Assembly: GCA_000091165.1 (NCBI GenBank) | Contig: FP565575.1 | Span: 300,001-332,000 of the forward strand | Origin: Candidatus Methylomirabilis oxygeniifera | GTDB lineage: Bacteria > Methylomirabilota > Methylomirabilia > Methylomirabilales > Methylomirabilaceae | Length of the DNA stretch: 32,000 bases | Direction: 5' to 3' | Shown: positions 5,202-27,861 of the stretch, in pieces | How the letters are laid out: every line of letters begins with the position of its first letter | How positions within the stretch are numbered: position 1 is the first letter of the stretch | Position numbers and translations under genes: made by a program | Notes under the pieces: model-generated | Told to the model about the DNA's origin: nothing | The model's database searches: none | Seen by the model: only the letters and a program-made list of their open reading frames with translations

Positions 5202-5513
5202 GTGTATGCAATTATTGAGTCGGGAGGCAAGCAACGCCGCGTCAGCCCCGGCGCGCTTGTGACCCTCGAAAAGATTGAGGGTGAGGCGGGGAAACAAGTC
5301 GAGCTGTCGAACGTTCTGATGGTGGCTGACGGCGACCAGGTGAAGATCGGCGCCCCCTATGTACAAGGCGCTGCCGTCGTCAGTGAGATCGTCCGGCAGG
5401 GGCGTGGACCCAAGGTTATGATCTTCAAGTTCAAACGGCGAAAGCGCTATCGGCGCACGCAGGGCCATCGCCAGGCGCAGACCACGTTGCGAATCACAGA
5501 GATTAAGGGATAG
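5202..5513 (+). CDS. rplU: 50S ribosomal protein L21
   Basis: MYAIIESGGKQRRV...KFKRRKRYRRTQGHRQ. GTG start preceded by GAGGAGG. Confidence 0.95.
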   Translation: MYAIIESGGKQRRVSPGALVTLEKIEGEAGKQVELSNVLMVADGDQVKIGAPYVQGAAVVSEIVRQGRGPKVMIFKFKRRKRYRRTQGHRQAQTTLRITEIKG

Positions 5514-5587
5514 GGTAAAAGGTATAGGGTCTAAGGGTCAGGCTAAAGGATTTTTTCTATACCCTACACGCTAGACCCTCCACCCTG
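5507..5587. repeat. Heptamer array, family A: G-rich arm (GGGATAGGGTAAAAGGTATAGGGTCTAAGGGTCAGG), spacer, C-rich arm (TATACCCTACACGCTAGACCCTCCACCCTG)
   Basis: 7-nt periodicity of GGG and CCC read directly. Fills the rplU-rpmA gap. Confidence 0.85.
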
Positions 5588-12824: not shown

Positions 12825-13865
<1,041 letters not shown>

Positions 13866-13878
13866 TCGTTCATTCGAC

Positions 13879-13906
13879 GTACGGGCGGGTTAAATCCCGC
13901 CCGTAC
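13879..13906 (+). other. Perfect 11-bp stem-loop in the gap-pgk spacer (GTACGGGCGGG-TTAAAT-CCCGCCCGTAC)
   Basis: Seen directly. Followed only by ATTT, so it is a weak or partial terminator, or an mRNA processing or stability element. Confidence 0.5.
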
Positions 13907-13963
13907 ATTTGATGTCCGATGCGCGTCGCGTATACTTTTCCTCGTACTGTGTAAGGAAGAATC

Positions 13964-15152
13964 ATGGCCAAACTATGTATCGATGACCTGGAGCTCTCAG
14001 GGAAACGGCTTCTGATTCGCGTCGATTTCAACGTCCCGATCGACGAGCAAGGGACGATCACCGACGATACGCGGGTCCGCGCTGCCCTCCCAACGATCAG
14101 CTATGCGATCCGGCATGGCGCAAAGGTCTTACTCATCTCGCACCTTGGCCGGCCAAAGGGCGGACCCAACCCGAAGTTCAGCCTCAGACCGGTAGCCGGG
14201 CGGCTGGCTGCATTGCTGGGGGGTCCGGGTCCAGATGGCGGAGGATTGCGTAGGGGCGGAGGTGAAGGCCAGGATCGACAGGATGGGACCAGGGGACGTG
14301 CTGATGCTGGAGAACTGCCGCTTTCATCCGGAGGAAGAAAAGAATGACGAAGTGTTCTCCGGAGCGCTGGCGGGGCTATGCGATCTATATGTCAACGACG
14401 CCTTCGGTACGGCACACCGCGCCCACGCCTCTACGGTCGGTGTGACACGATTCGTCAAACAGTCGGCATGCGGTTTTCTCATGCAGACGGAGCTCAAGCA
14501 GCTCGGAGCGTTACTTGACTCGCCGAAGCGTCCTTTTATCGCCATCCTCGGCGGCGCCAAGGTGTCGGATAAGATCGGGGTTCTCGCCAATCTACTTCCG
14601 AAGGTGGACAGTTTTCTGATCGGCGGGGGCATGGCCTATACATTCTTGAAGGCTCAAGGGCAGGAGGTGGGGAGCTCTCGGGTGGAGGCCGACGGACTGA
14701 GGATCGCACAGGAGACGATGGAGCAGGCCGGCCGTTCGAGTGTAGGCATTCATCTGCCCAGTGACCATGTGATTGCCGAGCGAATCGATGCAGACGCACC
14801 GACCAGGCAGGTGGATGGGAGCATTCCTGTCGGTTCGATGGGTCTTGACATCGGTCCCGCGACGATCAGCCGGTTCACTCAGGAGGTGAGACGCGCCAAA
14901 ACGATTCTGTGGAACGGGCCGATGGGCGTCTTCGAGCTGTTGCCTTTCCGGGAAGGGACGTTTGCCCTGGCCAAGGCGGTCGCAACCTCCGGTGCGCATT
15001 CAGTGATCGGGGGCGGCGATACAGCCGCCGCTGTCGTCCAAGCCGGAGTTGCTGACCAGATGACTCATATTTCTACGGGTGGCGGCGCATCCCTGGAGTT
15101 TCTGGAAGGGAAGGAACTGCCGGGCATCGCCGCGCTCACAGATAAGAACTAG
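13964..15152 (+). pseudogene. pgk: Phosphoglycerate kinase interrupted by a 1-nt frameshift in a G6 run (possibly an assembly artefact)
   Basis: The N-terminal part (RVDFNVP...ISHLGRPKG...SLRPVA) is in the frame of 13964. The C-terminal part (AEDCVGAEV...[15 protein letters not shown]...[13 protein letters not shown]...) is in the frame of 14235. The span is 1189 nt (3n+1). Removing one G from 14218-14223 gives a continuous 395-aa PGK. Confidence 0.9.
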
Positions 15153-15247
15153 GGTAATAGGGTATAGCGTTTAGGGTATAGTCGCAGGGTCTTTGAAAGC
15201 ATTTACCCTAAACCCTAAACCCCACACCCTCTACCCTGTACCCTAGG
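15150..15247. repeat. Heptamer array, family A: G-rich arm, spacer, C-rich arm including (ACCCTAA)2, pgk-tpiA gap
   Basis: TAGGGTAATAGGGTATAGCGTTTAGGGTATAGTCGCAGGGTC - TTTGAAAGCATT - TACCCTAAACCCTAAACCCCACACCCTCTACCCTGTACCCTAGG. Confidence 0.9.
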
Positions 15248-15254
15248 ATTTGAC

Positions 15255-16013
15255 ATGCGGATCCCAGTCATTGCCGGTAACTGGAAGATGTACAAAACTC
15301 CTTCCGAGGCCATCGTACTGGCGGAGGGAGTGGTAAGAGCTTTGTCGTCGCTCAATGGGCCGGAGTTGGTAGTGTGTCCTCCATTCACGGCGCTTGCTGC
15401 CGTTGGTCAGGTCGTTGCCGGATCTCGAATAGGCCTTGGCGGTCAGGACCTGCATTGGGCAAAGGAGGGGGCCTACACCGGAGAGGTGTCGGCTGACATG
15501 CTCAGGGATATCGGATGCCGCTATGTCATCATCGGCCACTCCGAGCGGCGGCAGTACTTCGGAGAGACCGATGAGTGTGTGAATAAGAAGAGTCGGGCGG
15601 CCTTGGCGAGCAACCTGATCCCGATCGTCTGTGTCGGCGAGACCCTCACCGAGCGAGAGGCGGGACGCGCCGATGCTGTTGTAGAGACTCAGCTCAAAGG
15701 GGCGCTGTCGGGTCTTGTGCCCGAGCAGGTTCGACGGCTTATCCTCGCGTATGAGCCGGTCTGGGCTATCGGTACAGGAAAAACGGCCACCCCGAGCCAG
15801 GCCGAGGAGATGCACGCATATATCCGCAAGACCATCGCTATGCTGTTCGATGCCGAGATGGCTTACGGTATCCGCATCCTCTACGGAGGAAGCGTCAAGC
15901 CGGATAATGCCAAGGAGCTGCTGGAGCGAGCTGAGATCGACGGTGCACTGATTGGCGGGGCAAGCCTGCAGCCCGAGTCATTTGCAGCGATCGCAGCAGC
16001 CGCAAATAAATAG
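15255..16013 (+). CDS. tpiA: Triosephosphate isomerase
   Basis: [34 protein letters not shown]. Confidence 0.95.
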
Positions 16014-16093
16014 AGGGTGTTGGGTGGAGGGGGTAGGGGGTAGAATAAAGAAGAGAGATTCTTCAGTTGTTTCCCCGACACCCTATACCCTAG
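16012..16093. repeat. Heptamer array, family A, tpiA-secG gap; the G-rich arm fits a G-quadruplex motif
   Basis: AGAGGGTGTTGGGTGGAGGGGGTAGGGGGTAGAA ... CCCCGACACCCTATACCCTAG. Confidence 0.85.
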
Positions 16094-16110
16094 TTTTTAA
16101 GGAGGTATGA

Positions 16111-16482
16111 ATGGTTATCGCACTTTCCGTTATACATCTGCTTATTGCGCTGGTTCTTATTGTGATTGTGCTCCTCCAGAGCGGCAAGGGGGCCGACATC
16201 GGTGCCGCCTTTGGCGGCGGCTCGAGTCAGACCGTCTTTGGTGGGCGCGGCGCTGCGACCTTCCTGAGCAAGCTGACTCTGGCAGCGGCCGTTCTCTTTA
16301 TGGTCTCATCCATTATACTGACTATTTGGTCAGAGCGTAGGGGTAGTTCCTCAGTGATTACAGAGGAACGGGTCGGGCAGACCGCCCCAGCTCCCGCATC
16401 TCCTCCGGCTGATGCCCCGGCGCCGCCAACGTCTCCGGCCGGACAGACGCCGCCAGCGCAGGTCCCTTCAGCCGCTAAGTAA
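16111..16482 (+). CDS. secG: Preprotein translocase subunit SecG with a Pro/Ala-rich C-terminal tail
   Basis: LLIALVLIVIVLLQSGKGADIGAAFGGGSSQTVFGGRGAATFLSKLT is the SecG signature. AAGGAGG lies 5 nt upstream. The tail is APAPASPPADAPAPPTSPAGQTPPAQ. Confidence 0.9.
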   Translation: MVIALSVIHLLIALVLIVIVLLQSGKGADIGAAFGGGSSQTVFGGRGAATFLSKLTLAAAVLFMVSSIILTIWSERRGSSSVITEERVGQTAPAPASPPADAPAPPTSPAGQTPPAQVPSAAK

Positions 16483-16491
16483 CAAGAACGC

Positions 16492-16824
16492 ATGTCCCGC
16501 TTGCGCAGCGCCCTTGCACACGCGTTTGCACTGAGCGGGCAAGATAGTCGGCTCGAAGCGGAAGATCTTGCCTTGTTGGATCGTTGTGCCCGCTTGCTCG
16601 CCGACCGCGGTCTTGTGACCCCTGCGATATTCCTGGTGGAGTCGCTCGTCCCGCTCGGTTTCCTCGCCGGTCAACTGGTTCATGCCCTGACACCGATCAT
16701 GGGAATGGTTGCCTCCCTCGATGATGTCGAACGGCTCGCACGTGTGCTGGAGCGCCGAGACGCTCCGGCCGTCTTTATCGACAGGCTCCGACTCATAGAG
16801 GAGGAACAACGTTATGAGTCGTGA
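16492..16824 (+). CDS. Hypothetical 110-aa protein with a central hydrophobic segment; first gene of the unknown operon
   Basis: ATG 9 nt after the secG stop. The 3' end overlaps the next gene by 11 nt. Hydrophobic stretch LVTPAIFLVESLVPLGFLAGQLVHALTPIMGMV. No family recognised. Confidence 0.55.
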   Translation: MSRLRSALAHAFALSGQDSRLEAEDLALLDRCARLLADRGLVTPAIFLVESLVPLGFLAGQLVHALTPIMGMVASLDDVERLARVLERRDAPAVFIDRLRLIEEEQRYES

Positions 16825-18607
16825 GATGACGGCGATTCTGGCTACCGACTGCGGGAGCACGACGACCAAAGCGATCCTGATCGAAAAGGTAGGGGAGGAG
16901 TATCGCCAGACCTTCCGCGGCGAGTCTCCGACCACCGTCGAGGCGCCGTTCGACGATGTGACCCGCGGCGTGCTGAACGCCGTCCAGGAGGTGGAGGAAC
17001 TGTCCGGGCGGAAGCTTCTGGATGGAGAGAGGATCGTGACGCCTGCCGAGGGGGGTCGCGGGGTTGACCTCTATGTCTCGACGAGCAGCGCCGGCGGCGG
17101 TCTCCAGATGATGGTGGCAGGCGTCGTGATGGCCATGACCGCCGAAAGCGCCCAACGGTGCGCCCTCGGTGCCGGCGCCATTGTCATGGACGTACTGGCC
17201 GGCAACGATGGGAGGGCGGCCCACGAGAAGATCGAGCGAATCCGGGTTCTGAGACCCGATATGATCTTGCTGTCCGGCGGGACCGATGGCGGAACGATCT
17301 CACACGTGGTGGAACTGGCGGAGTATATCCGGGCGGCCGATCCAAGACCCAGGCTCGGTGGGAGCTTTAAGCTGCCGGTTATCTTCGCCGGGAACAAAGA
17401 TGCGCGAAACCGGGTTCAGGAGATTCTGGGCGACCGGACGGCTCTCGTCATGACCGACAACATTCGACCCATTCTTGAGCGGGAGAATCTCGGACCGGCC
17501 CGCCACACGATCCACGACCTCTTTCTCGAACATGTCATGGCTCAGGCGCCGGGATATGGAACGCTTATGGGGTGGACAGGCGCGCCGATCATGCCGACGC
17601 CTGCTGCTGTCGGGTACATTATGGAGAGGGCGGCGAAAGCGCAGGGATTGAACCTGCTGGGTGTAGACATCGGGGGCGCCACTACCGATGTGTTCTCAGT
17701 GGTGGACGGACAATTCACCCGGACAGTCAGCGCCAATCTGGGAATGAGTTACAGTGTAAGTAATGTCCTGGCGGAGGCCGGTATTGAAAAGATCGAGCGA
17801 TGGCTGGCCGAGCCGATTGCAGAGCAGGAGTTGCGGAATCGGATCAAGAACAAGATGATCCGGCCCACCACGATCCCTCAGACACTCGCGGACCTGGCCC
17901 TGGAGCAGGCGATTGCGAGAGAGGCGCTTCGTCTTGCCTTTGATCAGCACAAGGCATTGGCAGTGAGCCTGAAGGGCGTTCAGCAAGAACGGACTATCGC
18001 GGATGCCTTCGAGCAGGAGGAGGGTGGGAAGAGCCTGATTGATCTGTACAGGATCGACCTCATCATCGGGAGTGGCGGGATCCTCTCCCATGCGCCACGC
18101 CGCGTCCAGGCGATGATGATGATGATCGATGCCTACCAGCCGCTTGGACTGACGCAATTAGCGGTGGACAGCATCTTCATGATGCCCCACCTCGGTGTGT
18201 TGTCTCAGGTCAATGAGCGAGCCGCCACCGAGGTGTTCCTGAAAGACTGTCTGGTTCCACTGGGCAGTTGCCTGGCTGCCGAGGGGAGGGCGAAGCGCGG
18301 CGAGCCATGTTTTGCGTATACCATCCGATCTACAGATGGTCGGCAAGCGCAGGGTGCCCTTCGCTTCGGGGAGATCGTTCGCCTCGATCTGCAGTCCGGA
18401 GCCGAAGCCGAGTTGCAGGTGGAGCCGTCGAAGAGCTTTGATCTGGGTGCCGGCAAAGGAAAACCGGTCACGCTGAAGGTGAAAGGCGGTGTAGTCGGGC
18501 TGATCCTGGATGCGAGAGGACGGCCGCTCTACCTGGCAGAGGACGAGTCGGAGCGGATCGTCCAATTGCGCGCCTGGGCCGACGCGGTCGATCTGTATCA
18601 GACATAA
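16814..18607 (+). CDS. GlmL/MutL-like ASKHA-fold ATPase (glutamate mutase L family), orphan, with a C-terminal extension of about 130 aa
   Basis: Phosphate-binding motifs ILATDCGSTTTKAILI and LLGVDIGGATTDVFSV, plus LLSGGTDGG and IIGSGGILSHAP. GAGGAGGAA lies upstream of ATG 16814. Confidence 0.8.
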   Translation: MSREMTAILATDCGSTTTKAILIEKVGEEYRQTFRGESPTTVEAPFDDVTRGVLNAVQEVEELSGRKLLDGERIVTPAEGGRGVDLYVSTSSAGGGLQMMVAGVVMAMTAESAQRCALGAGAIVMDVLAGNDGRAAHEKIERIRVLRPDMILLSGGTDGGTISHVVELAEYIRAADPRPRLGGSFKLPVIFAGNKDARNRVQEILGDRTALVMTDNIRPILERENLGPARHTIHDLFLEHVMAQAPGYGTLMGWTGAPIMPTPAAVGYIMERAAKAQGLNLLGVDIGGATTDVFSVVDGQFTRTVSANLGMSYSVSNVLAEAGIEKIERWLAEPIAEQELRNRIKNKMIRPTTIPQTLADLALEQAIAREALRLAFDQHKALAVSLKGVQQERTIADAFEQEEGGKSLIDLYRIDLIIGSGGILSHAPRRVQAMMMMIDAYQPLGLTQLAVDSIFMMPHLGVLSQVNERAATEVFLKDCLVPLGSCLAAEGRAKRGEPCFAYTIRSTDGRQAQGALRFGEIVRLDLQSGAEAELQVEPSKSFDLGAGKGKPVTLKVKGGVVGLILDARGRPLYLAEDESERIVQLRAWADAVDLYQT

Positions 18608-18611
18608 CGTT

Positions 18612-18646
18612 CCACTGACCACTGTAAACTTAACACTAAACACTGC
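18612..18646. repeat. Heptamer array (CCACTGA CCACTGT AAACTTA ACACTAA ACACTGC)
   Basis: Five degenerate 7-nt units fill the 45-nt gap between the ATPase gene and the next gene. Confidence 0.75.
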
Positions 18647-18652
18647 CCCCCA

Positions 18653-19792
18653 ATGGCTCATTCCTATACACCGGGATTACGTACGGCGGCACAGACCGTG
18701 GTTCGGAAGCGGCGGATCTTACCGATTTCCGGGCAGGTGCTTGTCCATACTGGGCAGGTGGTCACTGCGACGACGGTGATCGCTCAGACCGAGCTGCCCG
18801 GTAAGGTCCATGCGATCAATGTGGTCAATCTGCTGGGGATCGTCCCGCAGGAGATCCGTCGCTATATGCTCAAACGGGAGGGTGATGCGGTCAAGGCCGG
18901 CGAGCCGTTGGCCGAAAACCGGCCCGTTTTCAAATGGTTGAAGACCCAGGTCCCTGCCTCGATCACCGGAACGATCGAGACCGTGTCGGAGGTGACCGGA
19001 CAGGTATTTCTGAGAGAGCCGCCAAGACCACTGGCCCTGACCGCCTATCTCGACGGCCAAGTCGTTGAGACCATTCCCGATCAGGGGGCCACAGTGGAGA
19101 CGGTGTGCAGTCTCGTACAGGGGATTTTCGGCATCGGCGGCGAGGCTGTGGGTACGATCGCAGTTGCCGTCGACAATCGCGAAGACGAACTGACGCCGGA
19201 GCGGATTACCGACGCGCACCGAGGGATGATCGTTGTGGGCGGCTCGTTGATCGATCGTGACGGCTTCGCGAGGGCCAAGCAGGCCGGAGTTGCCGCTGTC
19301 GTTGTCGGCGGTATCCACGCGCTTGATCTGAAGCTGCTCCTCGGACGGGATCTTGGCGTCGCCATCACCGGTACCGAACAGATCGGTCCGACACTGATCA
19401 TCACTGAGGGGTTCGGTCGAATTGCCATGGCGAAGCGAACCTTCGATCTTCTGGTCTCCAAGACTGGACGTCGCGCGTCCTGCTCCGGGGCAACGCAGAT
19501 CCGGGCCGGCGTGATCAGGCCGGAGGTGATTGTTCCGATGGGGGAGCAGTCAGCAGTCAGTGATCAGCATTCAGCAGGGGACACCGCAGGAGTCGGAGGC
19601 GGACTGCGGGTCGGTGATCAAATCCGGATTATTCGGGAGCCGTATTTTGGCCGAATTTGCCGGGTATCCGCGCTTCCGGCGGACCTTCGGCTCCTGGCTA
19701 CGGGAAGTAAGGTCCGCGTTTTGGAGGCAGAGTTTGACGATGGGCAGCAGGTCGTTGTCCCTCGCGCCAATGTAGAGCTGCTGGAGGCGTAA
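18653..19792 (+). CDS. Hypothetical protein with a barrel-sandwich-hybrid (lipoyl-like) motif and a KOW/SH3-like C-terminal barrel
   Basis: LKREGDAVKAGEPLAE resembles lipoyl/RnfC-N/NqrA-type hybrid barrels. The C-terminus GDQIRIIREPYFGRICRV...KVRVLEAEFDDGQQVVVPRANVELL is KOW-like. Domain calls rest on motif resemblance only. Confidence 0.6.
   Translation: MAHSYTPGLRTAAQTVVRKRRILPISGQVLVHTGQVVTATTVIAQTELPGKVHAINVVNLLGIVPQEIRRYMLKREGDAVKAGEPLAENRPVFKWLKTQVPASITGTIETVSEVTGQVFLREPPRPLALTAYLDGQVVETIPDQGATVETVCSLVQGIFGIGGEAVGTIAVAVDNREDELTPERITDAHRGMIVVGGSLIDRDGFARAKQAGVAAVVVGGIHALDLKLLLGRDLGVAITGTEQIGPTLIITEGFGRIAMAKRTFDLLVSKTGRRASCSGATQIRAGVIRPEVIVPMGEQSAVSDQHSAGDTAGVGGGLRVGDQIRIIREPYFGRICRVSALPADLRLLATGSKVRVLEAEFDDGQQVVVPRANVELLEA
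19546..19577. repeat. Heptamer array inside a CDS (GCAGTCA GCAGTCA GTGATCA GCATTCA GCAG)
   Basis: Read directly. Translated as EQSAVSDQHSAG, just upstream of the KOW-like C-terminal region of the 18653-19792 product. Confidence 0.75.
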
Positions 19793-21108
19793 TGACGCTC
19801 AGGTTCGAGTGTCGAGTGTCGAGTGTTGAGTTGAAGGCCCGCAACCCGCAACCCGCAACCCGCAACCTGTTTTCCGTGCGCGTTCTTACCACAATCCTTA
19901 TTCTTGCTGTCTTTACCCTATATCCTATATCCTATATCCTTGCCTCTTCCCTTTCCCCTCCTGAGCAATTCGAAGCCTTCGATATGCCCGGCGATGGCGG
20001 AGGTAGCATCGGACTGTCGTGGCAAGCGGCTCCCTCTGACGGACCGACTGTGCGCTATCAGGTCTACGTCGCGGATCAGGCGCACGGACCTTTCACGCGA
20101 GTTGCCGAGTTTCCCGCCGATACCCACTACAAGAGCGATGTTGATCGCCCATGGTGGAGCTGGGATCGGAGCAAGGCCCATCACTTTTATCAGGTCAAAT
20201 CGACGCCGACCCTCCGTATCGAGAACGACCGATCCTACTTCTTCAAGGTGACGGCAACCGATGGGCTGCTGACCAGTGAGGGGCCGGTTCAATCGGCCGT
20301 TCCGGCGCCGAATTTCTTCAACATGGCAAAGGCCAACAACTTTCTGTTGATGTTCTTCTTCTCTGCGCTTGTCCTGTTTGCGATTGCCCAGGCAAAGCGG
20401 CATCCGACCATCTTCCTGCGCCGAATTCCAGGCCTCGATGCGGTGGAGGAGGCGATCGGCCGGGCGACCGAGATGGGACGGCCGATTCTCTACCTTACCG
20501 GCTCCGATGATATGTCGAGCCTGTCGACGATTGCGGCGACGGTCATTCTTGGACAGGTTGCGAAAAAGACGGCGGCGTACGATACACAGCTTCAGGTGCC
20601 GCACCGGGACCCGATCGTGATGGCTATCTGCCAGGAGATCGTCAAGGAGTCGTACCTGGAAGCCGGACGACCTGATGCTTATCGTGATGACGCGAACTTC
20701 TTCATCACCAACGATCAGTTCAGCTATACCGCTGCGGTGAACGGCATTATGCTTCGAGAGCGACCGGCAGCCAACTTTTTCATGGGTTTTTACTATGCCG
20801 AGGCGCTGTTGCTGGCAGAGACCGGCGCCGGGACCGGTGCAATCCAGATCGCCGGGACCGATGCCGACCTGCAACTGCCCTTCTTCATTACGACGTGCGA
20901 TTACACGCTGATCGGCGAGGAGCTGTACGCTGCAAGCGCATATCTCTCGCGTGAGCCGGTGCTGGTTGGGACCCTGCGGGGGCAGGATCTCGGGAAAGCG
21001 TTTCTCCTGTTCTCCATGGTGATCGGGACCATCCTTGCCACCATCGGCGGACTTGTCGGGACTCAGGCGTTCGTACCGTTGCTGCAACTGTTCCGGGACT
21101 TTAAGTAA
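19792..21108 (+). CDS. Membrane protein: signal anchor, FN3-like beta-sandwich, TM segment, C-terminal domain of about 230 aa of unknown function
   Basis: ATG 19792 overlaps the upstream TAA (TAATG). The alternative GTG 19876 starts at MRVLTTILILAVF. FN3-like GGSIGLSWQAAPSDGPTVRYQVYV...YFFKVTATDG. TM segments FLLMFFFSALVLFAIA and LLFSMVIGTILATIGGLV. Confidence 0.65.
   Translation: MTLRFECRVSSVELKARNPQPATRNLFSVRVLTTILILAVFTLYPISYILASSLSPPEQFEAFDMPGDGGGSIGLSWQAAPSDGPTVRYQVYVADQAHGPFTRVAEFPADTHYKSDVDRPWWSWDRSKAHHFYQVKSTPTLRIENDRSYFFKVTATDGLLTSEGPVQSAVPAPNFFNMAKANNFLLMFFFSALVLFAIAQAKRHPTIFLRRIPGLDAVEEAIGRATEMGRPILYLTGSDDMSSLSTIAATVILGQVAKKTAAYDTQLQVPHRDPIVMAICQEIVKESYLEAGRPDAYRDDANFFITNDQFSYTAAVNGIMLRERPAANFFMGFYYAEALLLAETGAGTGAIQIAGTDADLQLPFFITTCDYTLIGEELYAASAYLSREPVLVGTLRGQDLGKAFLLFSMVIGTILATIGGLVGTQAFVPLLQLFRDFK
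19805..19867. repeat. Perfect heptamer tandem repeats (TCGAGTG)3 ... (CGCAACC)4 at the 5' end of the FN3 membrane-protein ORF
   Basis: TCGAGTG at 19805-19825, CGCAACC at 19840-19867, counted directly. Confidence 0.9.
19917..19939. repeat. (CCTATAT)3 heptamer repeat inside the signal-anchor coding region
   Basis: Perfect 3 x 7 nt = 21 nt, translated as LYPISYI. Confidence 0.85.
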
Positions 21109-21190
21109 CAGGGTATAGGGTGTAGGGGATGGGGTATAGGGTACCAGCAGGATCACGAAAGAGCCCTTACCCCTTACCCCCTCCACCCTG
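21109..21190. repeat. Heptamer array, family A: G-rich arm with five G-tracts, spacer, C-rich arm
   Basis: CAGGGTATAGGGTGTAGGGGATGGGGTATAGGGTACC - 18 nt - CCCTTACCCCTTACCCCCTCCACCCTG. Confidence 0.9.
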
Positions 21191-21203
21191 TCTTTGAGGT
21201 GGA

Positions 21204-21845
21204 TTGATGGTTCTATTCTTGCGGCGGACGTTCCCGCTGATTCTGACCTTTCTGTTTGGTGTAGCGGGCGCCCTCCAGTATTACATCCCCCACCCTGTCT
21301 CCGAAGCGGCGCTCACTGAGGTCTCGGTCTGGCTTCGGATCATCCTTGGATTTGCCATGATCCTGGGGATCGCCAGCCTCTGCCACGTCCATTATGCGAA
21401 GATCCGGATACGGGCGGCAGGGTGGGGATACAGCCTGGTGGTCTATGTCTCGATGCTGGCTACGGTCGTGGTAGGGTTGTGGTCGCGGGGACAGGAGGAG
21501 GGGACAGGCTTCGGCTGGATCTATACGTATGCGCTGCTTGCGCTTCAGGGGACGATGTTTTCCATGCTCGGGTTCTTCGTGGCCTCTGCTGCATTCCGCG
21601 CCTTTCGGGCCAGGAGCAAGGAGGCGGCCGTATTGCTGGTGGCGGCGGTCCTGATGATGTTTGGGCGTGTGCCGTTGGGCGAGTATCTGGTGCCCGCTGC
21701 AGGACCCATAGCCGGCTGGCTCCTGAACGTCCTCAACACGGCCGCCAGGCGTGGGATCATCATCGGGATCAGCCTTGGCGGGATTGCGACCTCGATCAAG
21801 ATCATCCTTGGGATCGAGCGGTCGTACCTGGGGGGCAGAGATTGA
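21204..21845 (+). CDS. Polytopic integral membrane protein (about 5-6 TM), unknown family
   Basis: Hydrophobic segments throughout (LILTFLFGVAGAL, ILGFAMILGIASL, SLVVYVSMLATVVVGL, MFSMLGFFVASAAF, VLLVAAVLMMF). GAGGTGG upstream. Start is TTG 21204 or ATG 21207. Confidence 0.65.
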   Translation: MMVLFLRRTFPLILTFLFGVAGALQYYIPHPVSEAALTEVSVWLRIILGFAMILGIASLCHVHYAKIRIRAAGWGYSLVVYVSMLATVVVGLWSRGQEEGTGFGWIYTYALLALQGTMFSMLGFFVASAAFRAFRARSKEAAVLLVAAVLMMFGRVPLGEYLVPAAGPIAGWLLNVLNTAARRGIIIGISLGGIATSIKIILGIERSYLGGRD

Positions 21846-22723
21846 GGGAACTGGCCGGTAAGCTGCTGCGCATGGACCGTCGGGTGATCTTCGTTCTGAT
21901 CGCGCTGGCGACACTGATCCCGCTCTTGCGTCCGATCGGCTTTCCGATCCGGATCTCGCCGGAGGTTAAGCGGATCTACGACCATATCGAGTCGCTTCCG
22001 GCAGGATCGGTGTTTTTGCTGTCGCTGGACTTCGACCCGGCCTCAAAACCGGAACTCTATCCGATGGCGGTGGCACTGCTCAATCACGCCTTCAAGCGAG
22101 ACCTGCGGGTCGTCGGGATGACGCTCTGGGTGACAGGGACTGGAATGGCTGAGAAGGTTGTGAGTGGAATCGCGAGCGAGTACGGGAAGCAACGAGGAGT
22201 AGACTATACCTTTCTTGGATACTCGCCGGGCGGGAGCAACGTTATCATCAATATGGGGCAGGACCTGGCTGCCGCCTTTCCGACCGACCATTACGGTGCG
22301 CGAACTGCAGACCTTCCGGTTATGCAGGGGGTCACATCGCTGAGGCAGGTCAACTACGTGGTGAGTCTGGCTGCGGGTACGCCCGGCGTCGAAAGCTGGT
22401 ACGTGTACGGTAAAGAGAAGTACGGTTTCGAGTTGGGCGGTGGCGTGACAGCCGTAATCGCGCCCGGCCTCTATCCCTTCCTCGATACCGGGCAGATCAA
22501 CGGCCTGATCGGCGGATTGCGTGGGGCAGCCGAGTACGAAACGCTGATCGGGATGAAGGGGAAGGCGGTGGCCGGGATGGACGCGCAATCGGCGACGCAT
22601 TTTATTATTATCGGCCTGATTGTGCTCTGCAATCTCTTTTACTTCCTGACGCCCGGCACGAGGCTCCGATCCTTTAGTAGCGCTCAGGACAAACCGGGCT
22701 CGCCGCGAGAGGCGGGACGGTGA
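21842..22723 (+). CDS. Bitopic membrane protein: N-terminal and C-terminal TM segments flanking a soluble domain of about 230 aa, unknown family
   Basis: TTG 21842 overlaps the upstream TGA (TTGA); alternative ATG 21872. TM segments VIFVLIALATLIPLL and HFIIIGLIVLCNLFYFL. The ORF-track start 21422 overlaps the previous gene out of frame and is rejected. Confidence 0.6.
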   Translation: MRELAGKLLRMDRRVIFVLIALATLIPLLRPIGFPIRISPEVKRIYDHIESLPAGSVFLLSLDFDPASKPELYPMAVALLNHAFKRDLRVVGMTLWVTGTGMAEKVVSGIASEYGKQRGVDYTFLGYSPGGSNVIINMGQDLAAAFPTDHYGARTADLPVMQGVTSLRQVNYVVSLAAGTPGVESWYVYGKEKYGFELGGGVTAVIAPGLYPFLDTGQINGLIGGLRGAAEYETLIGMKGKAVAGMDAQSATHFIIIGLIVLCNLFYFLTPGTRLRSFSSAQDKPGSPREAGR

Positions 22724-23490
22724 TGACCCCGTCTGTTCTGCTCGGCGTCTGGGTGGCGGCCGGCCTCACCCTGTGTATGTTCAGCTTCCTGTACAAGGAC
22801 AACCCCTTCTTCCGATTCGGGGAGCACCTCTACGTCGGTATCTCGATGGGGTACACCATCGTCCGGATCTATTACGATGTGATGGTCAAAAGCCTCTACA
22901 CCCCGGTTATGCAGGAAGGGAAATGGTGGTTCCTGATCGCGGCCATCCTGGGTCTCCTGGTTCTGACCCGCTTCATCCCGAAGATAAGCTGGCTTAGCCG
23001 GATCTCATTTGCCGTCATCGTGGGTTTCGGTTCCGGCGTTGCTATCCCCCGCATCATCTCCTCGAATATCCTTCAGCAGGTACAGGGGACGTTAAAGCCG
23101 CTCCTCGGAAATGCCGGTCAATCTCTCTTCGGCATGACCCAGTTCAACGCATTACTGATCCTGATCGGCGTTGTGACGGTGCTAATCTATTTCTTCTTCT
23201 CCATCGAGCACAAAGGACCGATCCGGGTCGCGGCGCGGATCGGCATCTACTTCCTCATGATCAACTTCGGCGCCGGCTTTGGCTATACGGTTATGGCCCG
23301 CATGTCGCTGCTCATCGGCCGGTTCGACGATCTGATCCTCTTTAGTTCCCGCGAGTACGGCTACGCCTCGTTGGTGCTGCTCGGCATGATCGCCTTTGGC
23401 CTGTTCATGTGGGAGCGCAGCTCAACCGCCTCCTCCGGCCCCGATCAGGACCCACGCGCCTCTGGGAGCGAGGAGCGCCTCTCTCAGTAG
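22720..23490 (+). CDS. Polytopic integral membrane protein (about 6-7 TM), unknown family; last gene of the operon
   Basis: GTG 22720 or ATG 22723 overlaps the upstream TGA. Hydrophobic segments LLGVWVAAGLTLCMFSFL, WWFLIAAILGLLVL, ISFAVIVGFGSGVAI, ALLILIGVVTVLIYFFF, IGIYFLMINFGAGFGY, LVLLGMIAFGLFMW. Confidence 0.65.
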   Translation: MMTPSVLLGVWVAAGLTLCMFSFLYKDNPFFRFGEHLYVGISMGYTIVRIYYDVMVKSLYTPVMQEGKWWFLIAAILGLLVLTRFIPKISWLSRISFAVIVGFGSGVAIPRIISSNILQQVQGTLKPLLGNAGQSLFGMTQFNALLILIGVVTVLIYFFFSIEHKGPIRVAARIGIYFLMINFGAGFGYTVMARMSLLIGRFDDLILFSSREYGYASLVLLGMIAFGLFMWERSSTASSGPDQDPRASGSEERLSQ

Positions 23491-23709: not shown

Positions 23710-24042
23710 ATGTCTGAATCGGACTTGGCGTTGATCCGACGTTGTGTCCATGAAGGTCGGCTCCTATGGACCTACCATGTTAACATGCGTTTACGACAAC
23801 GGCGTGTGTCCCGCTCCCTGGTGACGGAAAGTGTGGACAGTTACCGGATTATTGAGCAGTATCCACGAAGCCACACCTCTCGTTACTTGCCGAGTTGTCT
23901 AGTGCGTGCGGAGCATCACGGAGAGATGATTCATATCCTGTTCGCCCTCGACAGGGAAGGTGATACCGTACGAGTCATCACTGTATATCGGCCGGATCCC
24001 GCAGAGTGGGACGCCGATTTTCTGCGGAGGAAAAAGCCATGA
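23710..24042 (+). CDS. DUF4258-family putative toxin
   Basis: IIEQYPRSHTSRYLPSCLV...HILFALDREGDTVRVITVYRPDPAEW fits the DUF4258 pattern. Overlaps its zinc-finger partner by ATGA. Confidence 0.7.
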   Translation: MSESDLALIRRCVHEGRLLWTYHVNMRLRQRRVSRSLVTESVDSYRIIEQYPRSHTSRYLPSCLVRAEHHGEMIHILFALDREGDTVRVITVYRPDPAEWDADFLRRKKP

Positions 24043-24260
24043 AATGTCATATCTGCGGCGGTGAAGTCAAGGTAGCGACATCCGACATGCCGTTTAAACT
24101 CGAAGCAAACCGGATTGTCATCTTCAAGAATCTTCCGGTGCTCCAATGCGGGCAGTGCGGGGAATACCTGATTGAAGACCCCGTCATGGCGCGGGTGGAG
24201 GAAATGCTCGACCGCATTGATGCCTCGGCGGAGCTGGAGATTGTGCGCTACGCGGCGTAA
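24039..24260 (+). CDS. YgiT-type zinc-finger protein (MqsA-like putative antitoxin)
   Basis: MKCHICGG...VLQCGQCGEYLIED has two CxxC pairs. ATG 24039 overlaps the upstream stop. Confidence 0.7.
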   Translation: MKCHICGGEVKVATSDMPFKLEANRIVIFKNLPVLQCGQCGEYLIEDPVMARVEEMLDRIDASAELEIVRYAA

Positions 24261-24266
24261 CGTGGC

Positions 24267-24506
24267 ATGATCACTGAAGCTGACACCTGCAGGAAGTACG
24301 TCTTGCCGAAGCTCTACGCAGCCGGCTGGACCGACGACCAGATCAGCGAGCAAAAGACCTTCACTGACGGGCGGATCGTCGTTGCCGAGCTGGAAGCCTT
24401 GCAAAAAGAGGTGGATCGGCTGAAAGCACTCCAGGCGGAGACCGCTGCCGAACTCGACGCGCTGCTGCCCGCCATCCGCGACCGCGCATTCAAGGGGGAA
24501 CTCTGA
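24267..24506 (+). pseudogene. Type I R-M fossil: HsdR N-terminal stub (about 39 aa) fused to an HsdS C-terminal stub (about 40 aa)
   Basis: MITEADTCRKYVLPKLYAAGWTDDQISEQKTFTDGRIVV is a typical HsdR N-terminus. LEALQKEVDRLKALQAETAAELDALLPAIRDRAFKGEL is a typical HsdS C-terminal coiled coil ending AFKGEL. Junction near 24384. Confidence 0.7.
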
Positions 24507-24688
24507 TGGTCAAGAGTTGCGCTTCACCGATCGCGGCTCCACTCAGAATGAAACCACCGTATGAACGCATCGTTTTGGAGAAACGCGAATCCCGCACTGT
24601 CGCTGCCCTACGCGACGCGCTGCTTCGGAAGCTGCTCTCGGAGGAACTGCGGATGAGAACGGCTGAAAAACTGCTGGAGGTCGAATGA
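24506..24688 (+). pseudogene. Second HsdS C-terminal remnant
   Basis: SRTVAALRDALLRKLLSEELRM matches the conserved HsdS distal motif (LRD.LLPKLLSGE.R). Only 60 codons. Overlaps its neighbours via TGATG and ATGATGA. Confidence 0.6.
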
Positions 24689-25989
24689 TGAGGGAGATGA
24701 TCCTTCTTGGGGCAGGCGCATCTGTCGAAGCGGGTGTGCCTGATACGTACGGAATGACCAGTAAGATCATGGAGTTGTTCCGCAAAGACTACCTCATGCA
24801 ACGTTATGTGGCTGTCATCTCATTCGTGATCGGGGGCCTTCTTTTTCAACATGGAATCAAGGGCCGAGATCCTCTACAAGAGGGTGTGAACGTCGAAGAG
24901 CTTTTCAATGCAGTCCAATTGCTGGCCGAGCGTAATACTCTGGAGGCTGCTCCATTTGTTGAATCGTGGCACCCAATGGTGCAGGAATTGGACAGGGCAC
25001 GCTTGCATGCAGGATCCGGCAGACTCTATTGGTTATTTTACGACCGACTTGTCGGAGCAATGGAGAGCGCTCTGGGGAGTCTACCGTCCGGCAATAACCG
25101 GACCAACCCGAGGGAATTCATGAGAGACTGGGTGAGTCGAGTTAGATATTCGGGCTCATCAGGCGGCTTTGACATCGACCGTGAACTTCAAAAAGTCATT
25201 GAGCAGGTGAAAGATCGACCTGGTGAAGGCGAGATCTTTTCAGGGACCGCAGAATCCATGATTCGTGTCTTGGTCAATATCGTCTGGATCGACCAAGCGG
25301 AACGCGTCGCTTATATGGAGCCGTTAGCTTCATTGGTAGGTGCACAGGGGCGACTTACGGTCGCTACGCTGAATTATGACAACAGCGTCGAACTACTCGC
25401 GCAATCAGCGGGCCTGCCATGTGCAACCGGCATTGAAAAGTGGTCTGAAACCGGTTCGTTCATGCCGAGCAGCGATGGGATCTTTTTGATCAAACTTCAC
25501 GGCTCGATTGATTGGGCGCTGGAAGGCGACAAGAGGTCAGAAGACCGTCCAATGCCTCATAGTGTCATTCGACAGGTAAACGCTGAGGAAATCAAGAAGC
25601 CGGGGTTTCGACCGGGGGTCATATTTGGTCAACGCAATAAACTGACGGCAGAAGGGCCATTTTTGGATCTCTTACGCGCATTCCAACAAGAGTTGTCGCG
25701 CAGCGATATTCTGACTGTGGTGGGGTATTCCTTTCGAGATGATCATGTCAACGAATATATCTCACAATGGCTGAACCAATCGAGAGAGCGGAGGATGCGC
25801 ATCATCAACCCTCATTTTGATCGCAGCCCGAGCCCTTACGCTGGGCAACTCTCACGTTTTGGAGGAACCCAAGTAGAGATAATCCGTGAACCCGCTGGCG
25901 CTGGGTTGGTGAAGTTGTATTCATACTCGATTGTAATCGCACCATCGGTGACGCAACCTTCAAGCGTGTCTGCTGAGCCGACGACATAG
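24685..25989 (+). CDS. Stand-alone SIR2-like (SIR2_2 family) protein, putative NAD+-depleting defence effector
   Basis: Motifs ILLGAGASVEAGVP (Rossmann GAGxS), TLNYDN (catalytic Asn context), KLHGSIDW (catalytic His context), VVGYSFRDDHV. No second domain recognised. GC is visibly lower than in flanking DNA. Confidence 0.75.
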   Translation: MMREMILLGAGASVEAGVPDTYGMTSKIMELFRKDYLMQRYVAVISFVIGGLLFQHGIKGRDPLQEGVNVEELFNAVQLLAERNTLEAAPFVESWHPMVQELDRARLHAGSGRLYWLFYDRLVGAMESALGSLPSGNNRTNPREFMRDWVSRVRYSGSSGGFDIDRELQKVIEQVKDRPGEGEIFSGTAESMIRVLVNIVWIDQAERVAYMEPLASLVGAQGRLTVATLNYDNSVELLAQSAGLPCATGIEKWSETGSFMPSSDGIFLIKLHGSIDWALEGDKRSEDRPMPHSVIRQVNAEEIKKPGFRPGVIFGQRNKLTAEGPFLDLLRAFQQELSRSDILTVVGYSFRDDHVNEYISQWLNQSRERRMRIINPHFDRSPSPYAGQLSRFGGTQVEIIREPAGAGLVKLYSYSIVIAPSVTQPSSVSAEPTT

Positions 25990-26115
25990 CGACAAATGGC
26001 GCTTTTACTGATTCCATCGCCGAAGAAGCCACCCTTGGTTCGATGGCGGCAAAGTAAAACAGCGTAGCGTTCCGGGCTGGCCTGGACCGAGATTGCAGAC
26101 CGATGGAAAGGATTT

Positions 26116-26319
26116 TTAGCGGCGTGATCCGGAGGACGCTGTGGGTTTCTTAGGGCTGTTGACTGTATCGATGGCTTTAGACGCGACAGACGCCAGAGTG
26201 AGACCCAGACGAGCGCCCTCAATAATTGATGAACTCGACACCGCCGTCCAAAGCAACGACTGTCTTTGCGCAGGATCTTTCAAATAGGGGTTCGTTTCGA
26301 TCAGAGGCTTTTTACGCAT
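26116..26319 (-). CDS. Small conserved-looking hypothetical protein (67 aa), convergent with the SIR2 gene
   Basis: The N-terminal ETNPYLKDPAQRQSLLWTAVSSSSIIEG resembles a recurrent small-protein motif I recall from other bacteria but cannot name. The only minus-strand gene I consider plausible. Confidence 0.4.
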   Translation of the reverse strand: MRKKPLIETNPYLKDPAQRQSLLWTAVSSSSIIEGARLGLTLASVASKAIDTVNSPKKPTASSGSRR

Positions 26320-26368
26320 GATTTTTTATATCACACCGTGGGCGGCTGAGCACCATGAAAGTGCAACC

Positions 26369-26491
26369 TTGAACGTCGCCCAACTCGCTGAATCCATCGT
26401 CGAAAACGCAGCTTTCGCCTGCCTGGAGAACCTCGGCTGGAGGGCACTCGCGGGCTGGCCGTACCGCATAGTGGCTACGCCCTCGCTCTGA
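26369..26491 (+). pseudogene. HsdR N-terminal remnant (second, different family)
   Basis: Manual translation from TTG 26369 gives LNVAQLAESIVENAAFACLENLGWRALAG..., matching the HsdR N-terminal pattern (ES.VE.AAL.WL..LGW). It stops after 40 codons. Confidence 0.5.
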
Positions 26492-26562
26492 CCCGCTCCT
26501 GGCGATAGAGGCGGCAAGATCCCGTCAGGTCTTGCAGTCGGCTGTCCATGATCCTTTCATTT

Positions 26563-26614
26563 GGCCGAACTACAACCTTGCAATTAGCCGACCCATAAGG
26601 TTACAATTGGCCGA
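26563..26614. repeat. Upstream copy of the flanking direct repeat: two 23-nt units GGCCGAACTACAACCTTGCAATT / AGCCGACCCATAAGGTTACAATT + GGCCGA
   Basis: Read directly. AACCTT...AAGGTT forms an internal inverted repeat. Ends at the A of the ATPase start codon. Confidence 0.75.
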
Positions 26615-27861
26615 TGCCGGAGACCGCCCTCTACCCACGTTACGCTGAGCCTCGCCTCGTCGAGGCGCTGGCCGATTCGCCCGTGGTGCTAATCCATGGC
26701 CCGCGCCAGGTCGGTAAGACGACCCTCGCCCGAGTGGTCGGGGAACCCAGGGGATACGCTTATGTCAGTTTCGATGACGACGTCGCGCGCGGCGCCGCAG
26801 AGGCTGATCCGGTGGGCTTCGTCGCCGATCTGCCGGACCGGGCGATCCTGGATGAAGTGCAACGGGTACCGACGCTCTTCACCGCATTGAAGACGGCGGT
26901 CGATCGTAGCCGTAAGGCCGGCCGTTTCATGCTGACCGGCTCGACCAACGTGCTGCTGGTGCCGAACCTCGCCGACTCGCTGGCAGGTCGCATGGCGATC
27001 CTGCGGTTGTACCCGCTGGCGCAGTGCGAGCTGGAGCGGCGCGCATCGGGTTTCCTCGACGTCCTCTTCGAGGGCCGGTTCAAGATCCGGCGAACCGAGC
27101 GGCTGGCTCACCGGCTGGCGGAGCGGATCGTGGCGGGCGGATACCCGGCCGCGCTCACGCGCGCCGCTGTCCGTCGGCGCGCCGCATGGTACCGCGATTA
27201 TCTTGACGCATTGGTCCAGCGCGACGTGCGCGATCTGGCCCGCGTCAGCTCACTTGACGCGCTTCCAAGGCTGCTCGCACTGGCGGCGGCGCAGACTGCG
27301 CGGCTGCTGAACGTGTCGGATCTGGCTGCGCCCTTCCAGCTCAGTCGGCCGACGATCCGCGATTACGTCACGTTACTTGAGCGGGTGTTCCTGCTGGAGA
27401 CGTTGCCGCCATGGCACAGCAACCGCCTGAGCCGACTTATCAAGACGCCGAAGCTGCATGTCGGCGATACCGGACTTGCCTGCGCGCTGCTCGGCGTAGA
27501 TGCGGTCGCCGTTGCTGCCGATCGACCCCTGTTGGGCCAGCTTCTCGAAACCTTTGTGTTTCAGGAATTACGACGTCAGGCGAGCTGGCATGAGGAGCCG
27601 TTGGTGTTCTTTCATTACCGGGATAAGGACGGTATAGAAGTGGACATCGTCATCGAGCGCGGTGCGCGTGTGCTAGCGGGTGTAGAGGTAAAGGCGGCCG
27701 CCACGGTGACTGCAGCCGATTTCAGTGGCCTGCGCAAGCTGAGGGACGCTGCGGGCAAACGTTTTGCCGCCGGCGTTGTCCTCTACGATGGGGAGACCAG
27801 CGCGAGTTTCGGCGAAGGACTGCATGCCGTTCCGTTGCGTGCGCTCTGGGAAATGACGTGA
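26614..27861 (+). CDS. AAA-family ATPase with C-terminal DUF4143-type domain
   Basis: Walker A LIHGPRQVGKTTLA, Walker B AILDEVQRVP, the common AAA_14 + DUF4143 architecture, and a C-terminal restriction-endonuclease-like EVDIVIE...GVEVK. GC is visibly higher than in neighbouring DNA. Confidence 0.8.
   Translation: MPETALYPRYAEPRLVEALADSPVVLIHGPRQVGKTTLARVVGEPRGYAYVSFDDDVARGAAEADPVGFVADLPDRAILDEVQRVPTLFTALKTAVDRSRKAGRFMLTGSTNVLLVPNLADSLAGRMAILRLYPLAQCELERRASGFLDVLFEGRFKIRRTERLAHRLAERIVAGGYPAALTRAAVRRRAAWYRDYLDALVQRDVRDLARVSSLDALPRLLALAAAQTARLLNVSDLAAPFQLSRPTIRDYVTLLERVFLLETLPPWHSNRLSRLIKTPKLHVGDTGLACALLGVDAVAVAADRPLLGQLLETFVFQELRRQASWHEEPLVFFHYRDKDGIEVDIVIERGARVLAGVEVKAAATVTAADFSGLRKLRDAAGKRFAAGVVLYDGETSASFGEGLHAVPLRALWEMT

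Follow-up and report, generated by a model that had tools for sequence, protein, structure and literature searches.

A set of seven genes that directly follows secG in Candidatus Methylomirabilis oxygeniifera on balance probably encodes a single ATP-dependent membrane system composed of two modules. The genes lie in a 32,000-nucleotide (nt) stretch of GenBank contig FP565575.1 (positions 300,001 to 332,000), hereafter called the window, within which all positions are counted, and are named g1 to g7 in their order after secG. Module A consists of g1, g2 and g3, among which g2 is an ATPase of the ASKHA fold (actin/Hsp70/sugar-kinase-type), and module B consists of g4 to g7. The original prediction, which had been made from the letters of the window alone, described seven co-directional open reading frames (ORFs) at 16492-23490, and all seven are present on the + strand as follows, with lengths in amino acids (aa):

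g1: 16492-16824, + strand, 110 aa
g2: 16814-18607, + strand, 597 aa; CBE67435.1 by exact-sequence look-up
g3: 18653-19792, + strand, 379 aa; CBE67436.1 by exact-sequence look-up
g4: 19792-21108, + strand, 438 aa from ATG 19792 or 410 aa from GTG 19876
g5: 21204-21845, + strand, 213 aa as an ORF, about 212 aa from the likelier ATG 21207
g6: 21842-22723, + strand, 293 aa, with a TTG start
g7: 22720-23490, + strand, 256 aa from GTG 22720 or about 255 aa from ATG 22723; the final gene of the set

Conservation and linkage of the two modules

One genome per GTDB species was scanned, and 478 genomes were found to contain a relative of g4. The best 80 loci (L001 to L080) come from Methylomirabilota, Nitrospirota (including cultured Nitrospira), Binatia, Acidobacteriota and metagenome-assembled genomes (MAGs) labelled 'Deltaproteobacteria'. 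Where at least 5.5 kb of sequence is available upstream of g4 (n = 37 loci), both g2 and g3 lie upstream of it in 35 loci and g1 lies upstream of g2 in 30, and each of the 55 loci with at least 3 kb downstream of g4 carries g5 to g7 there. The gene order from g1 to g7, as read by tblastn, is kept in loci of sufficient length. Compared with the window, g1 has a median identity of about 41% and g2 to g7 have medians of 54-68%, and the 50-70% identity of the subunits between phyla points to a strongly selected core function. Hundreds of species carry the set, and among them are organisms central to the nitrogen and methane cycles, namely nitrite oxidisers, comammox Nitrospira, and M. oxyfera, a methane oxidiser that depends on nitrite. 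According to the original prediction, a match of the membrane proteins to a known transporter or secretion family, a lack of co-occurrence of the genes elsewhere, or adjacent mutase genes would have spoken against it; the seven-gene set was instead seen across several phyla, and neither such a match nor, in the annotated flanks, an adjacent mutase gene was found.

In the window, g1 to g7 form the end of a co-directional block of core housekeeping genes (polyprenyl synthase, tlyA-like, nadK, recN, obg, proB, proA, nadD, rsfS, dksA, comF-like, gap, pgk, tpiA, and secG), a position that was counted in favor of the proposed system. In Nitrospira sp. BLG_1, genes on the opposite strand stand on both sides of the seven, which indicates that g1-g7 is a self-contained unit. 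It had been argued that contiguity with secG places the system in envelope or membrane-protein biology. The linkage to secG, tpiA, and pgk occurs in 9 of the 80 loci, all of them from Methylomirabilota apart from one other MAG (L014), and is absent at Nitrospira sp. BLG_1, and therefore this argument does not generalize.

The more distant contexts (L081 to L095) were sampled at about a dozen loci, and they connect the ATPase to g3 and both to the membrane. The ATPase had been regarded as an orphan; however, g2 represents a distinct subfamily of about 600 aa and stands next to g3, or is fused with it, at every distant locus where both positions are readable. Two natural g2-g3 fusions were found, P0147 (995 aa) and P0192 (1003 aa), and the locus of P0147 (L083) encodes g1, the fused g2-g3, g4 (DUF6754), g5, and g6. 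Another locus (L084) has the permuted order g6, g7, g2, g3. In Planctomycetes, a single g1-g2-g3 set precedes two tandem g4-g5-g6-g7 sets at locus L092, as identified by profile hidden Markov models (HMMs; E 6e-37 for g1). Locus L095 has the layout g4-g5-g6-g7-g1-g2-g3, read from gene size and from Pfam matches (DUF6754 and MutL only), together with a second g2-g3 pair and the start of another g4, and the homologs of g4 and g6 at this locus can be aligned with the family. In locus L090 (1557-9319), a 1331-aa protein joins a signal peptide, an M1-peptidase ectodomain, and a transmembrane helix to a g2-type ASKHA domain, and the gene is followed by g3 and then by two genes for Band_7/SPFH proteins. 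In Clostridia, the g2-g3 pair is followed by a small polytopic membrane protein. Across these loci, the g2-g3 pair is repeatedly found with membrane partners that have extracytoplasmic parts, most often g4-g7.

Two further observations concern the same loci. The contig of L095, which is labelled Bathyarchaeota, contains two g2-g3 pairs and at least two DUF6754 genes between 7164 and 19131, and either the contig is mis-binned or archaea possess the system too. Several loci have peptidase genes close to the pair or to g3, namely two TldD/PmbA genes (L095), Trypsin_2 (L092), Peptidase_C39_2 (L091), and M24 (L093); the fusion in L090 is the only direct connection, and the gene context makes a link of g2-g3 to extracytoplasmic proteolysis possible.

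The seven subunits compared with known systems

The ATPase g2 matches the Pfam MutL family (PF13941) over the entire profile (1-450 of 450, residues 8-479; E 8.2e-126, 420.8 bits with a cut-off of 27), whereas it remains under the cut-offs of the NCBIfam GlmL equivalog NF040745 (231.8 bits; cut-off 475) and of glmL_fam TIGR01319 (168 bits; cut-off 204). The motifs DCGSTTTKA, GGTDGG, and DIGGATTDV, recognized in the original prediction, are present and invariant across 16 orthologs, and the phosphate-1, phosphate-2, and adenosine motifs are likewise all kept and invariant. Past the MutL match, g2 has a further conserved domain of about 120 aa at its C-terminus (residues ~480-597), which all complete distant homologs checked share. 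The sequence of g2 is 67% identical to the Planctomycetes ortholog and 46-58% identical to the more distant homologs checked. GlmL/MutL is the accessory protein of coenzyme-B12-dependent glutamate mutase, and Or-4 is a related ornithine-pathway protein. Residues 8-479 of g2 are homologous to both GlmL/MutL (PF13941; NF040745, TIGR01319) and Or-4 (NF040744), with the same ASKHA fold and the same phosphate and adenosine motifs; in contrast to GlmL, however, g2 scores under the cut-offs, carries the additional C-terminal domain, stands in a pair or fusion with g3 instead of between mutase subunits, shows linkage to membrane proteins, and has no B12 enzyme nearby. On score, architecture, and genomic context, g2 does not qualify as GlmL proper. 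Public databases name it 'glutamate mutase L', 'methylaspartate mutase', or 'conserved protein of unknown function', and the first of these labels is probably misleading.

The absence of a mutase, B12, or hydantoinase-B partner, noted for the window from the outset, holds in the 32-kb window and in the annotated flanks of other loci. GlmS and GlmE are absent from the window and from the Pfam lists of L081-L095, no Hydantoinase_B family occurs among the neighbors in the window or in the annotated distant loci, and the flanks of L001-L080 contain no recurrent mutase-sized or unexplained family. The ATP-binding subunits of hydantoinase A, oxoprolinase, and the acetone and acetophenone carboxylases (PF01968, PF05378) belong to the same ASKHA branch as g2, which has a weak local match to Hydantoinase_A at the adenosine motif (24.7 bits over 47 residues, profile 62-109 of 291). 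However, this match is fragmentary, a partner of the hydantoinase-B type is lacking, and the architecture of g3 is different. At E ≤ 0.1, Pfam gave no match of g2 to the diol/glycerol dehydratase reactivase (DdrAB) or to EutA, and no B12 enzyme is encoded nearby; profile searches against the PDB found no sequence relative of g2.

The partner protein g3 belongs to a large family of 2260 50%-identity clusters at E ≤ 1e-3. An alignment of 103 sequences from a 50%-identity representative library was the input for AlphaFold2 (AF2), and the resulting model (predicted local distance difference test, pLDDT, 92.6; predicted template-modelling score 0.82) consists of an N-terminal barrel-sandwich hybrid of the biotinyl/lipoyl-like type, a central domain with a beta part and a Rossmann-like alpha/beta part, a disordered linker, and a C-terminal KOW/SH3-like barrel. 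The barrel-sandwich N-terminus and the KOW-like tail, both of which had been proposed from the sequence, are shown by this high-confidence model and by Foldseek domain matches. In the PDB, the tail matches the KOW domains of Spt5/NusG (for Spt5, TMt 0.83 and root-mean-square deviation 1.5), PetP, and ribosomal KOW proteins; the head has a real but weak resemblance to BCCP; and the center has weak PA-domain and RraA-like matches with template-modelling scores < 0.4. Foldseek found no whole-chain relative of g3 among the solved structures of the PDB, and sequence profile searches of the same database gave weak KOW and lipoyl signals only. The match of g3 to the biotinyl/lipoyl family PF00364 (14.7 bits) is under the cut-off of 22.1, and its homologs have faint Pfam matches to RnfC_N, NQRA_N, and BSH families. 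No invariant or near-invariant lysine occurs in the 103-sequence alignment, and g3 is therefore not a carrier of biotin or lipoate. At the level of domain folds, the termini of g3 are similar to BCCP/lipoyl domains, RnfC_N/NqrA_N, the KOW domain of NusG/Spt5, and PetP, but g3 differs from BCCP/lipoyl proteins, NusG/Spt5, and PetP in that it has no whole-chain match to them, no invariant biotin or lipoate lysine, and a center without a confident structural relative. This central domain carries nearly all of the family-invariant residues (R21, G135, G160, G253, G255, R284, G286, R289, and P290) and the motifs QGxFGxGGE, TGxE, TEGFG, and GATQIRAGxxRPE. A D-x-H-x-G string in g3 was considered as a B12-binding motif and rejected, as it is not conserved across the family.

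According to hydropathy and alignment, the small protein g1 combines a conserved HAFA(L/V) motif in its N-terminal part with a single hydrophobic hairpin (residues ~41-70) and a C-terminal helix that is charged, and an alignment of ten orthologs shows invariant positions at H10, A11, F12, A13, P44, P54, F57, L58, Q61, and H64. We propose that g1 may be a membrane tether or adaptor for g2. The protein g4 matches DUF6754 (PF20539; E 2.6e-119, 397.5 bits with a cut-off of 27, profile 2-254 of 257) and is laid out as a signal peptide or anchor, an FN3-like domain, a transmembrane helix with a strongly basic stretch after it, the DUF6754 domain (~200 aa), and a C-terminal transmembrane helix. By hydropathy and the positive-inside rule, the FN3-like domain is probably periplasmic and DUF6754 probably cytoplasmic. 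The FN3-like part, another feature of the original prediction, is modelled by AF2 as a confident beta-sandwich (pLDDT 73-90 in most 10-residue blocks, 46-48 at residues 111-130). It is absent from the g4 homologs of L095 (260-265 aa), which indicates that the FN3 domain is dispensable.

A 23-ortholog alignment of g5, a polytopic protein with about six transmembrane helices, has a mean column identity of 66%; no consistent Pfam family was found across its 23 members, and a NarI-like assignment (Nitrate_red_gam, E 0.007) was rejected because it appeared in 2 of the 23 orthologs among other noise matches. The protein g6 had been called bitopic, which is not simply so, as hydropathy places transmembrane helices at both its N- and C-termini, with basic cytoplasmic ends, on either side of a domain of about 220 aa that looks alpha/beta, is highly conserved (mean column identity 71%), and is predicted from the positive-inside rule to be periplasmic. 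By hydropathy, g7 is a polytopic protein with about five to six transmembrane helices. No homology was detected between the g4 domain and g6 by hhalign, between g5 and g7, or between the halves of g5 or g7.

Five of the seven proteins (g1, g3, g5, g6, and g7) have no Pfam or NCBIfam family above cut-off, and the other two carry either a DUF label or the glutamate mutase name discussed above. The claim that the membrane subunits lie outside characterized families stands: Pfam and NCBIfam yield DUF6754 only, no membrane subunit matches a transporter or secretion family (ABC, MFS, RND/MFP, Sec, T2SS/T4P, and others), profile searches found no PDB sequence relatives for the DUF6754 domain of g4 or for g5, g6, and g7, and none of the seven proteins matches an anti-phage defense system in PADLOC. 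The public names across the set are 'Hypothetical', 'DUF6754 domain-containing', 'KOW domain-containing', 'glutamate mutase L', and 'methylaspartate mutase'. By analogy, the set resembles PilM-PilN/O, GspL, FtsA-FtsN, and MreB-RodZ/MreCD, in which a cytoplasmic actin-fold protein is combined with small adaptors and with membrane proteins that have periplasmic domains; however, g2 has no sequence-family match to PilM_2, FtsA, or MreB in Pfam. In the PilM, GspL, FtsA, and MreB systems, energy is provided by separate ATPases or by polymer dynamics. A second analogy is ABC mechanotransmission (GldFG, MacB, FtsEX, LolCDE), with a cytoplasmic ATPase, two six-transmembrane-sized proteins, and an extracytoplasmic domain flanked by transmembrane helices, but g1-g7 contain no ABC nucleotide-binding protein or ABC-2 permease match and their ATPase has the ASKHA fold. 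Since no subunit ties the set to a described system beyond the fold of the ATPase, g1-g7 appear to be categorically new.

Proposed function and competing explanations

The gene set with its coupling, conservation, fusions, and permutations is shown by the sequences, as are the domain folds of g3 (by its model) and the intact ATP-binding motifs of g2, and a physical complex, its topology, its ATP-driven work, and any substrate would be inferences from these. Module A would consist of the cytoplasmic ATPase pair g2-g3, with g1 holding the pair at the membrane, and module B would be an inner-membrane complex of the polytopic g5 and g7 together with g4 and g6 as carriers of soluble domains. The g2-g3 pair would dock on the cytoplasmic face of g4-g7, and ATP binding and hydrolysis by g2, relayed by g3, would perform conformational work on g4-g7, with a periplasmic outcome that may be either transport or the assembly or processing of an envelope component. 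A broader reading, which we consider possible but doubtful, is that an ASKHA-fold ATPase, rather than one of the P-loop or P-type, powers a transmembrane machine here as the first example of its kind, with g2-g3 as an engine in interchangeable membrane modules. If this were true, g2-g3 would plug into g4-g7, into the transmembrane-tethered M1 peptidase, or into the small polytopic proteins of Clostridia, and would serve transport, or the processing of envelope or periplasmic proteins, in Nitrospirota, Methylomirabilota, Planctomycetota, Binatia, Acidobacteriota, and other phyla.

Several observations weigh against a single membrane system driven by g2. The only characterized relatives of g2 have a proposed role as chaperones of B12 enzymes that are soluble, and not as membrane motors, and no published paper was found on any of the seven proteins, the DUF6754 family included. 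The apparent novelty of the set derives from sequence searches and from the g3 model and not from the folds of g2 and g4-g7. The AF2 model of g4, built from a 14-sequence alignment, has a mean pLDDT of 52, with the DUF6754 domain mostly < 50 and unusable, and the topology of the membrane subunits is drawn solely from hydropathy and the positive-inside rule. The modules are also separable, as each is found without the other nearby: g4-g7 occur without module A in L015 and L032, and g2-g3 occur without module B in L085, L087, L089, L091, and L094. In L093, a g3 homolog lacks g2 beside it. The solitary modules would be expected if g1-g3 were a soluble metabolic or chaperone unit that merely neighbors g4-g7 as an independent membrane complex. 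We consider this quite improbable, as the linkage survives three gene orders, fusion, duplication, and phylum-level divergence, and as g2 is independently tethered to the membrane in L090 and the Clostridia pair precedes a small polytopic membrane protein.

Other explanations keep the two modules together and assign a different use to the ATP, or return g2 to the B12 enzymes. As a reactivase or cofactor chaperone, g2-g3 would spend ATP not on transport but on maintenance of a membrane enzyme formed by g4-g7, one of whose cofactors or subunits they would load, exchange, or repair. The full-length match of g2 to the MutL/GlmL Pfam family agrees with this, as do the single module A that accompanies two copies of module B in L092, in the manner of a shared chaperone, and the conserved soluble domains of g4 and g6, whose invariant acidic, histidine, and cysteine residues are possibly catalytic. 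We nevertheless regard it as unlikely, since neither Pfam nor NCBIfam gives a cofactor-binding family or motif in any subunit, the D-x-H-x-G string of g3 is not a family feature, no B12 or mutase genes lie in any annotated flank, g2 falls under both the equivalog and the subfamily cut-offs for GlmL, and the reactivase role of GlmL is itself a proposal. The strict conservation of g2, which is 67% identical between NC10 and Planctomycetes and 46-58% further out, suggests many constrained surfaces and would suit a scaffold, in which an actin-fold g2, polymerizing or static in its ATP-bound form, is connected by g3 and g1 as adaptors to an envelope complex of g4-g7, as in MreB-RodZ-MreCD, FtsA-FtsN, or PilM-PilNO. 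The small putative adaptor g1 with its conserved N-terminal peptide motif, and the PilB and PilT genes after g4-g7 in L015, point in the same direction. The latter adjacency was seen in one locus only, however, and g2 falls in a hydantoinase-like branch (with the weak Hydantoinase_A matches) whose known members are enzymes or chaperones and not filaments, so that there is little probability in the scaffold reading. The family-level HMM matches and the database names suggest that g2 is a true GlmL for a glutamate (methylaspartate) mutase whose genes lie elsewhere in the genome, yet we consider this extremely unlikely: g2 misses both NCBIfam GlmL cut-offs, its 120-aa C-terminal extension and near-constant g3 partner are lacking in canonical glmS-glmL-glmE operons, and mutase genes are missing from the 32-kb window and the annotated flanks of L081-L095, with no recurrent mutase-sized flanking family in L001-L080.

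For the two-module system proposed here, a solved function would explain what a large GlmL-related ASKHA subfamily does, and likewise the g3 family with its more than 2000 50%-identity clusters; it would also correct a propagated annotation and would possibly reveal a new coupling of ATP to envelope work. The natural fusions, the duplicated membrane modules, and the transmembrane-tethered variant provide concrete constructs for structural and biochemical work.

Gene junctions, heptamer arrays, and neighboring genes

Most of the gene junctions are as originally described. The gap between secG and g1 is 9 nt (secG stop 16480-16482, g1 ATG 16492), with no terminator-like site found between the two genes. 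An 11-nt overlap joins g1 and g2 (g2 ATG 16814, preceded 8 nt upstream by GGAGGA; g1 TGA 16822-16824), TTGA at 21842-21845 joins the g5 stop to the g6 start, and GTGATGA at 22720-22726 joins g6 to g7; these start/stop overlaps indicate translational coupling. The TTG start of g6 is backed by ortholog N-termini, and the coupling of g6 and g7 holds with either start of g7, of which ATG 22723 fits the ortholog alignment slightly better than GTG 22720. The start of g5 is more likely ATG 21207 than 21204. At the g3/g4 junction, the TAATG at 19790-19794 exists, with GGAGG located 5 nt upstream, but the start of g4 at this site is ambiguous. The first 28 codons from ATG 19792 consist mostly of two heptamer arrays, which are absent from a relative with 90% identity (L004), where the gene starts at the codon matching GTG 19876, yet ATG 19792 has a good GGAGG.

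The arrays and spacers inside the set are the following, with copy numbers from Tandem Repeats Finder (TRF) where indicated:

g2-g3 spacer: 18608-18652, + strand, imperfect 7-nt periodicity (ACTNNNN x5); no Rfam match
g3-g4 arrays: 19793-19875, + strand, TCGAGTG x3.9 and CCCGCAA x4.3 (TRF), 84 nt in all
g4-g5 spacer: 21109-21203, + strand, G-rich AGGGTAT x4.9 and C-rich CCCTTAC x2.4 (TRF); no Rfam match

The spacers at 18608-18652 and 21109-21203 had been described as the only gaps in the set and as filled by heptamer arrays. Both gaps are real, but the stretch at 19793-19875 either forms a third, array-filled spacer between genes or extends the N-terminus of g4 in frame by 28 codons. TRF confirms arrays at 21110-21143 and 21164-21180, whereas the periodicity at 18608-18652 is visible by eye and is under the TRF threshold. 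In the g4-g5 spacer, the G-rich and C-rich arrays pair as a hairpin (-44 kcal/mol, fold z-score -2.1) without a U-tract, and this hairpin was not called as a terminator. Relatives have g2-g3 spacers of different lengths, ranging between about 15 nt (L014) and about 90 nt (L004), and in L004 the g4 and g5 matches overlap, leaving no g4-g5 spacer. Comparable 7-nt arrays occur at or near other junctions of the window (327-359, 2464-2504, 5504-5537, 15205-15245, and 16028-16043 by TRF). Their spread over junctions of the whole window and their variation from one relative to the next identify the arrays as a lineage-specific feature of junctions and not as a component of the system. Further array positions are 19805-19867, 19917-19940, and 21110-21180, and the units across the window include CCCTACA, ACCCTAA/CCCTAAA-like, AGGGTAT, CCCTTAC, TCGAGTG, CCCGCAA, and CCTATAT. 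The last of these (x3.4) is inside the part of g4 that encodes the signal peptide, where L004 has CACCCTC x3 at the same position (L004 9325-9346), and this difference suggests a fast-evolving, position-specific repeat process in Methylomirabilis.

Upstream of the set, pgk is made up of two ORFs that overlap in different frames (13964-14347 and 14235-15152), and the homology changes frame near 14225-14235; this split (13964-15152) is a frameshift, a sequencing error, or a pseudogene. Directly past g7, positions 23710-27861 contain a DUF4258 toxin-like gene that overlaps the gene of an MqsA-like antitoxin, together with genes for a SIR2_2 protein (434 aa) and for an AAA_14-DUF4143 ATPase, apparently a mobile or defense islet unrelated to g1-g7. 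An insert of about 4 kb lies between g5 and g6 in two related contigs, L081 (12074-16041) and L082 (2791-6758), and encodes DUF1016_N nuclease-like, MqsA-like antitoxin, UvrD_C_2 helicase-like, and DUF2290 proteins, which looks like a defense or mobile cassette within a conserved operon.

Some contig labels appear inconsistent with their content. L001 (DATMXF010000049.1), labelled 'Patescibacteria group bacterium', has 83-98% protein identity to the window from gap through g7 and is almost certainly a mis-binned or mislabelled MAG contig, and L017, L024, and L032, labelled Enterobacteriaceae or Klebsiella, look mislabelled as well. In L015, from one Nitrospirota MAG, the g4-g7 genes are followed by genes for PilB-like (T2SSE+MshEN) and PilT-like ATPases (13468-16446), an arrangement seen once. 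Three tandem Tll0287-like (PF11845) genes lie between g3 and g4 in L036 (7493-9953), and g3-g4 gaps of 1.6-2.5 kb also occur in L020, L021, L023, L026, L029, L034, and L037 (Nitrospirales). A Memo-like gene of ~416-423 aa, which does not occur in the window, is located downstream on the same strand in 29 Nitrospirota loci.

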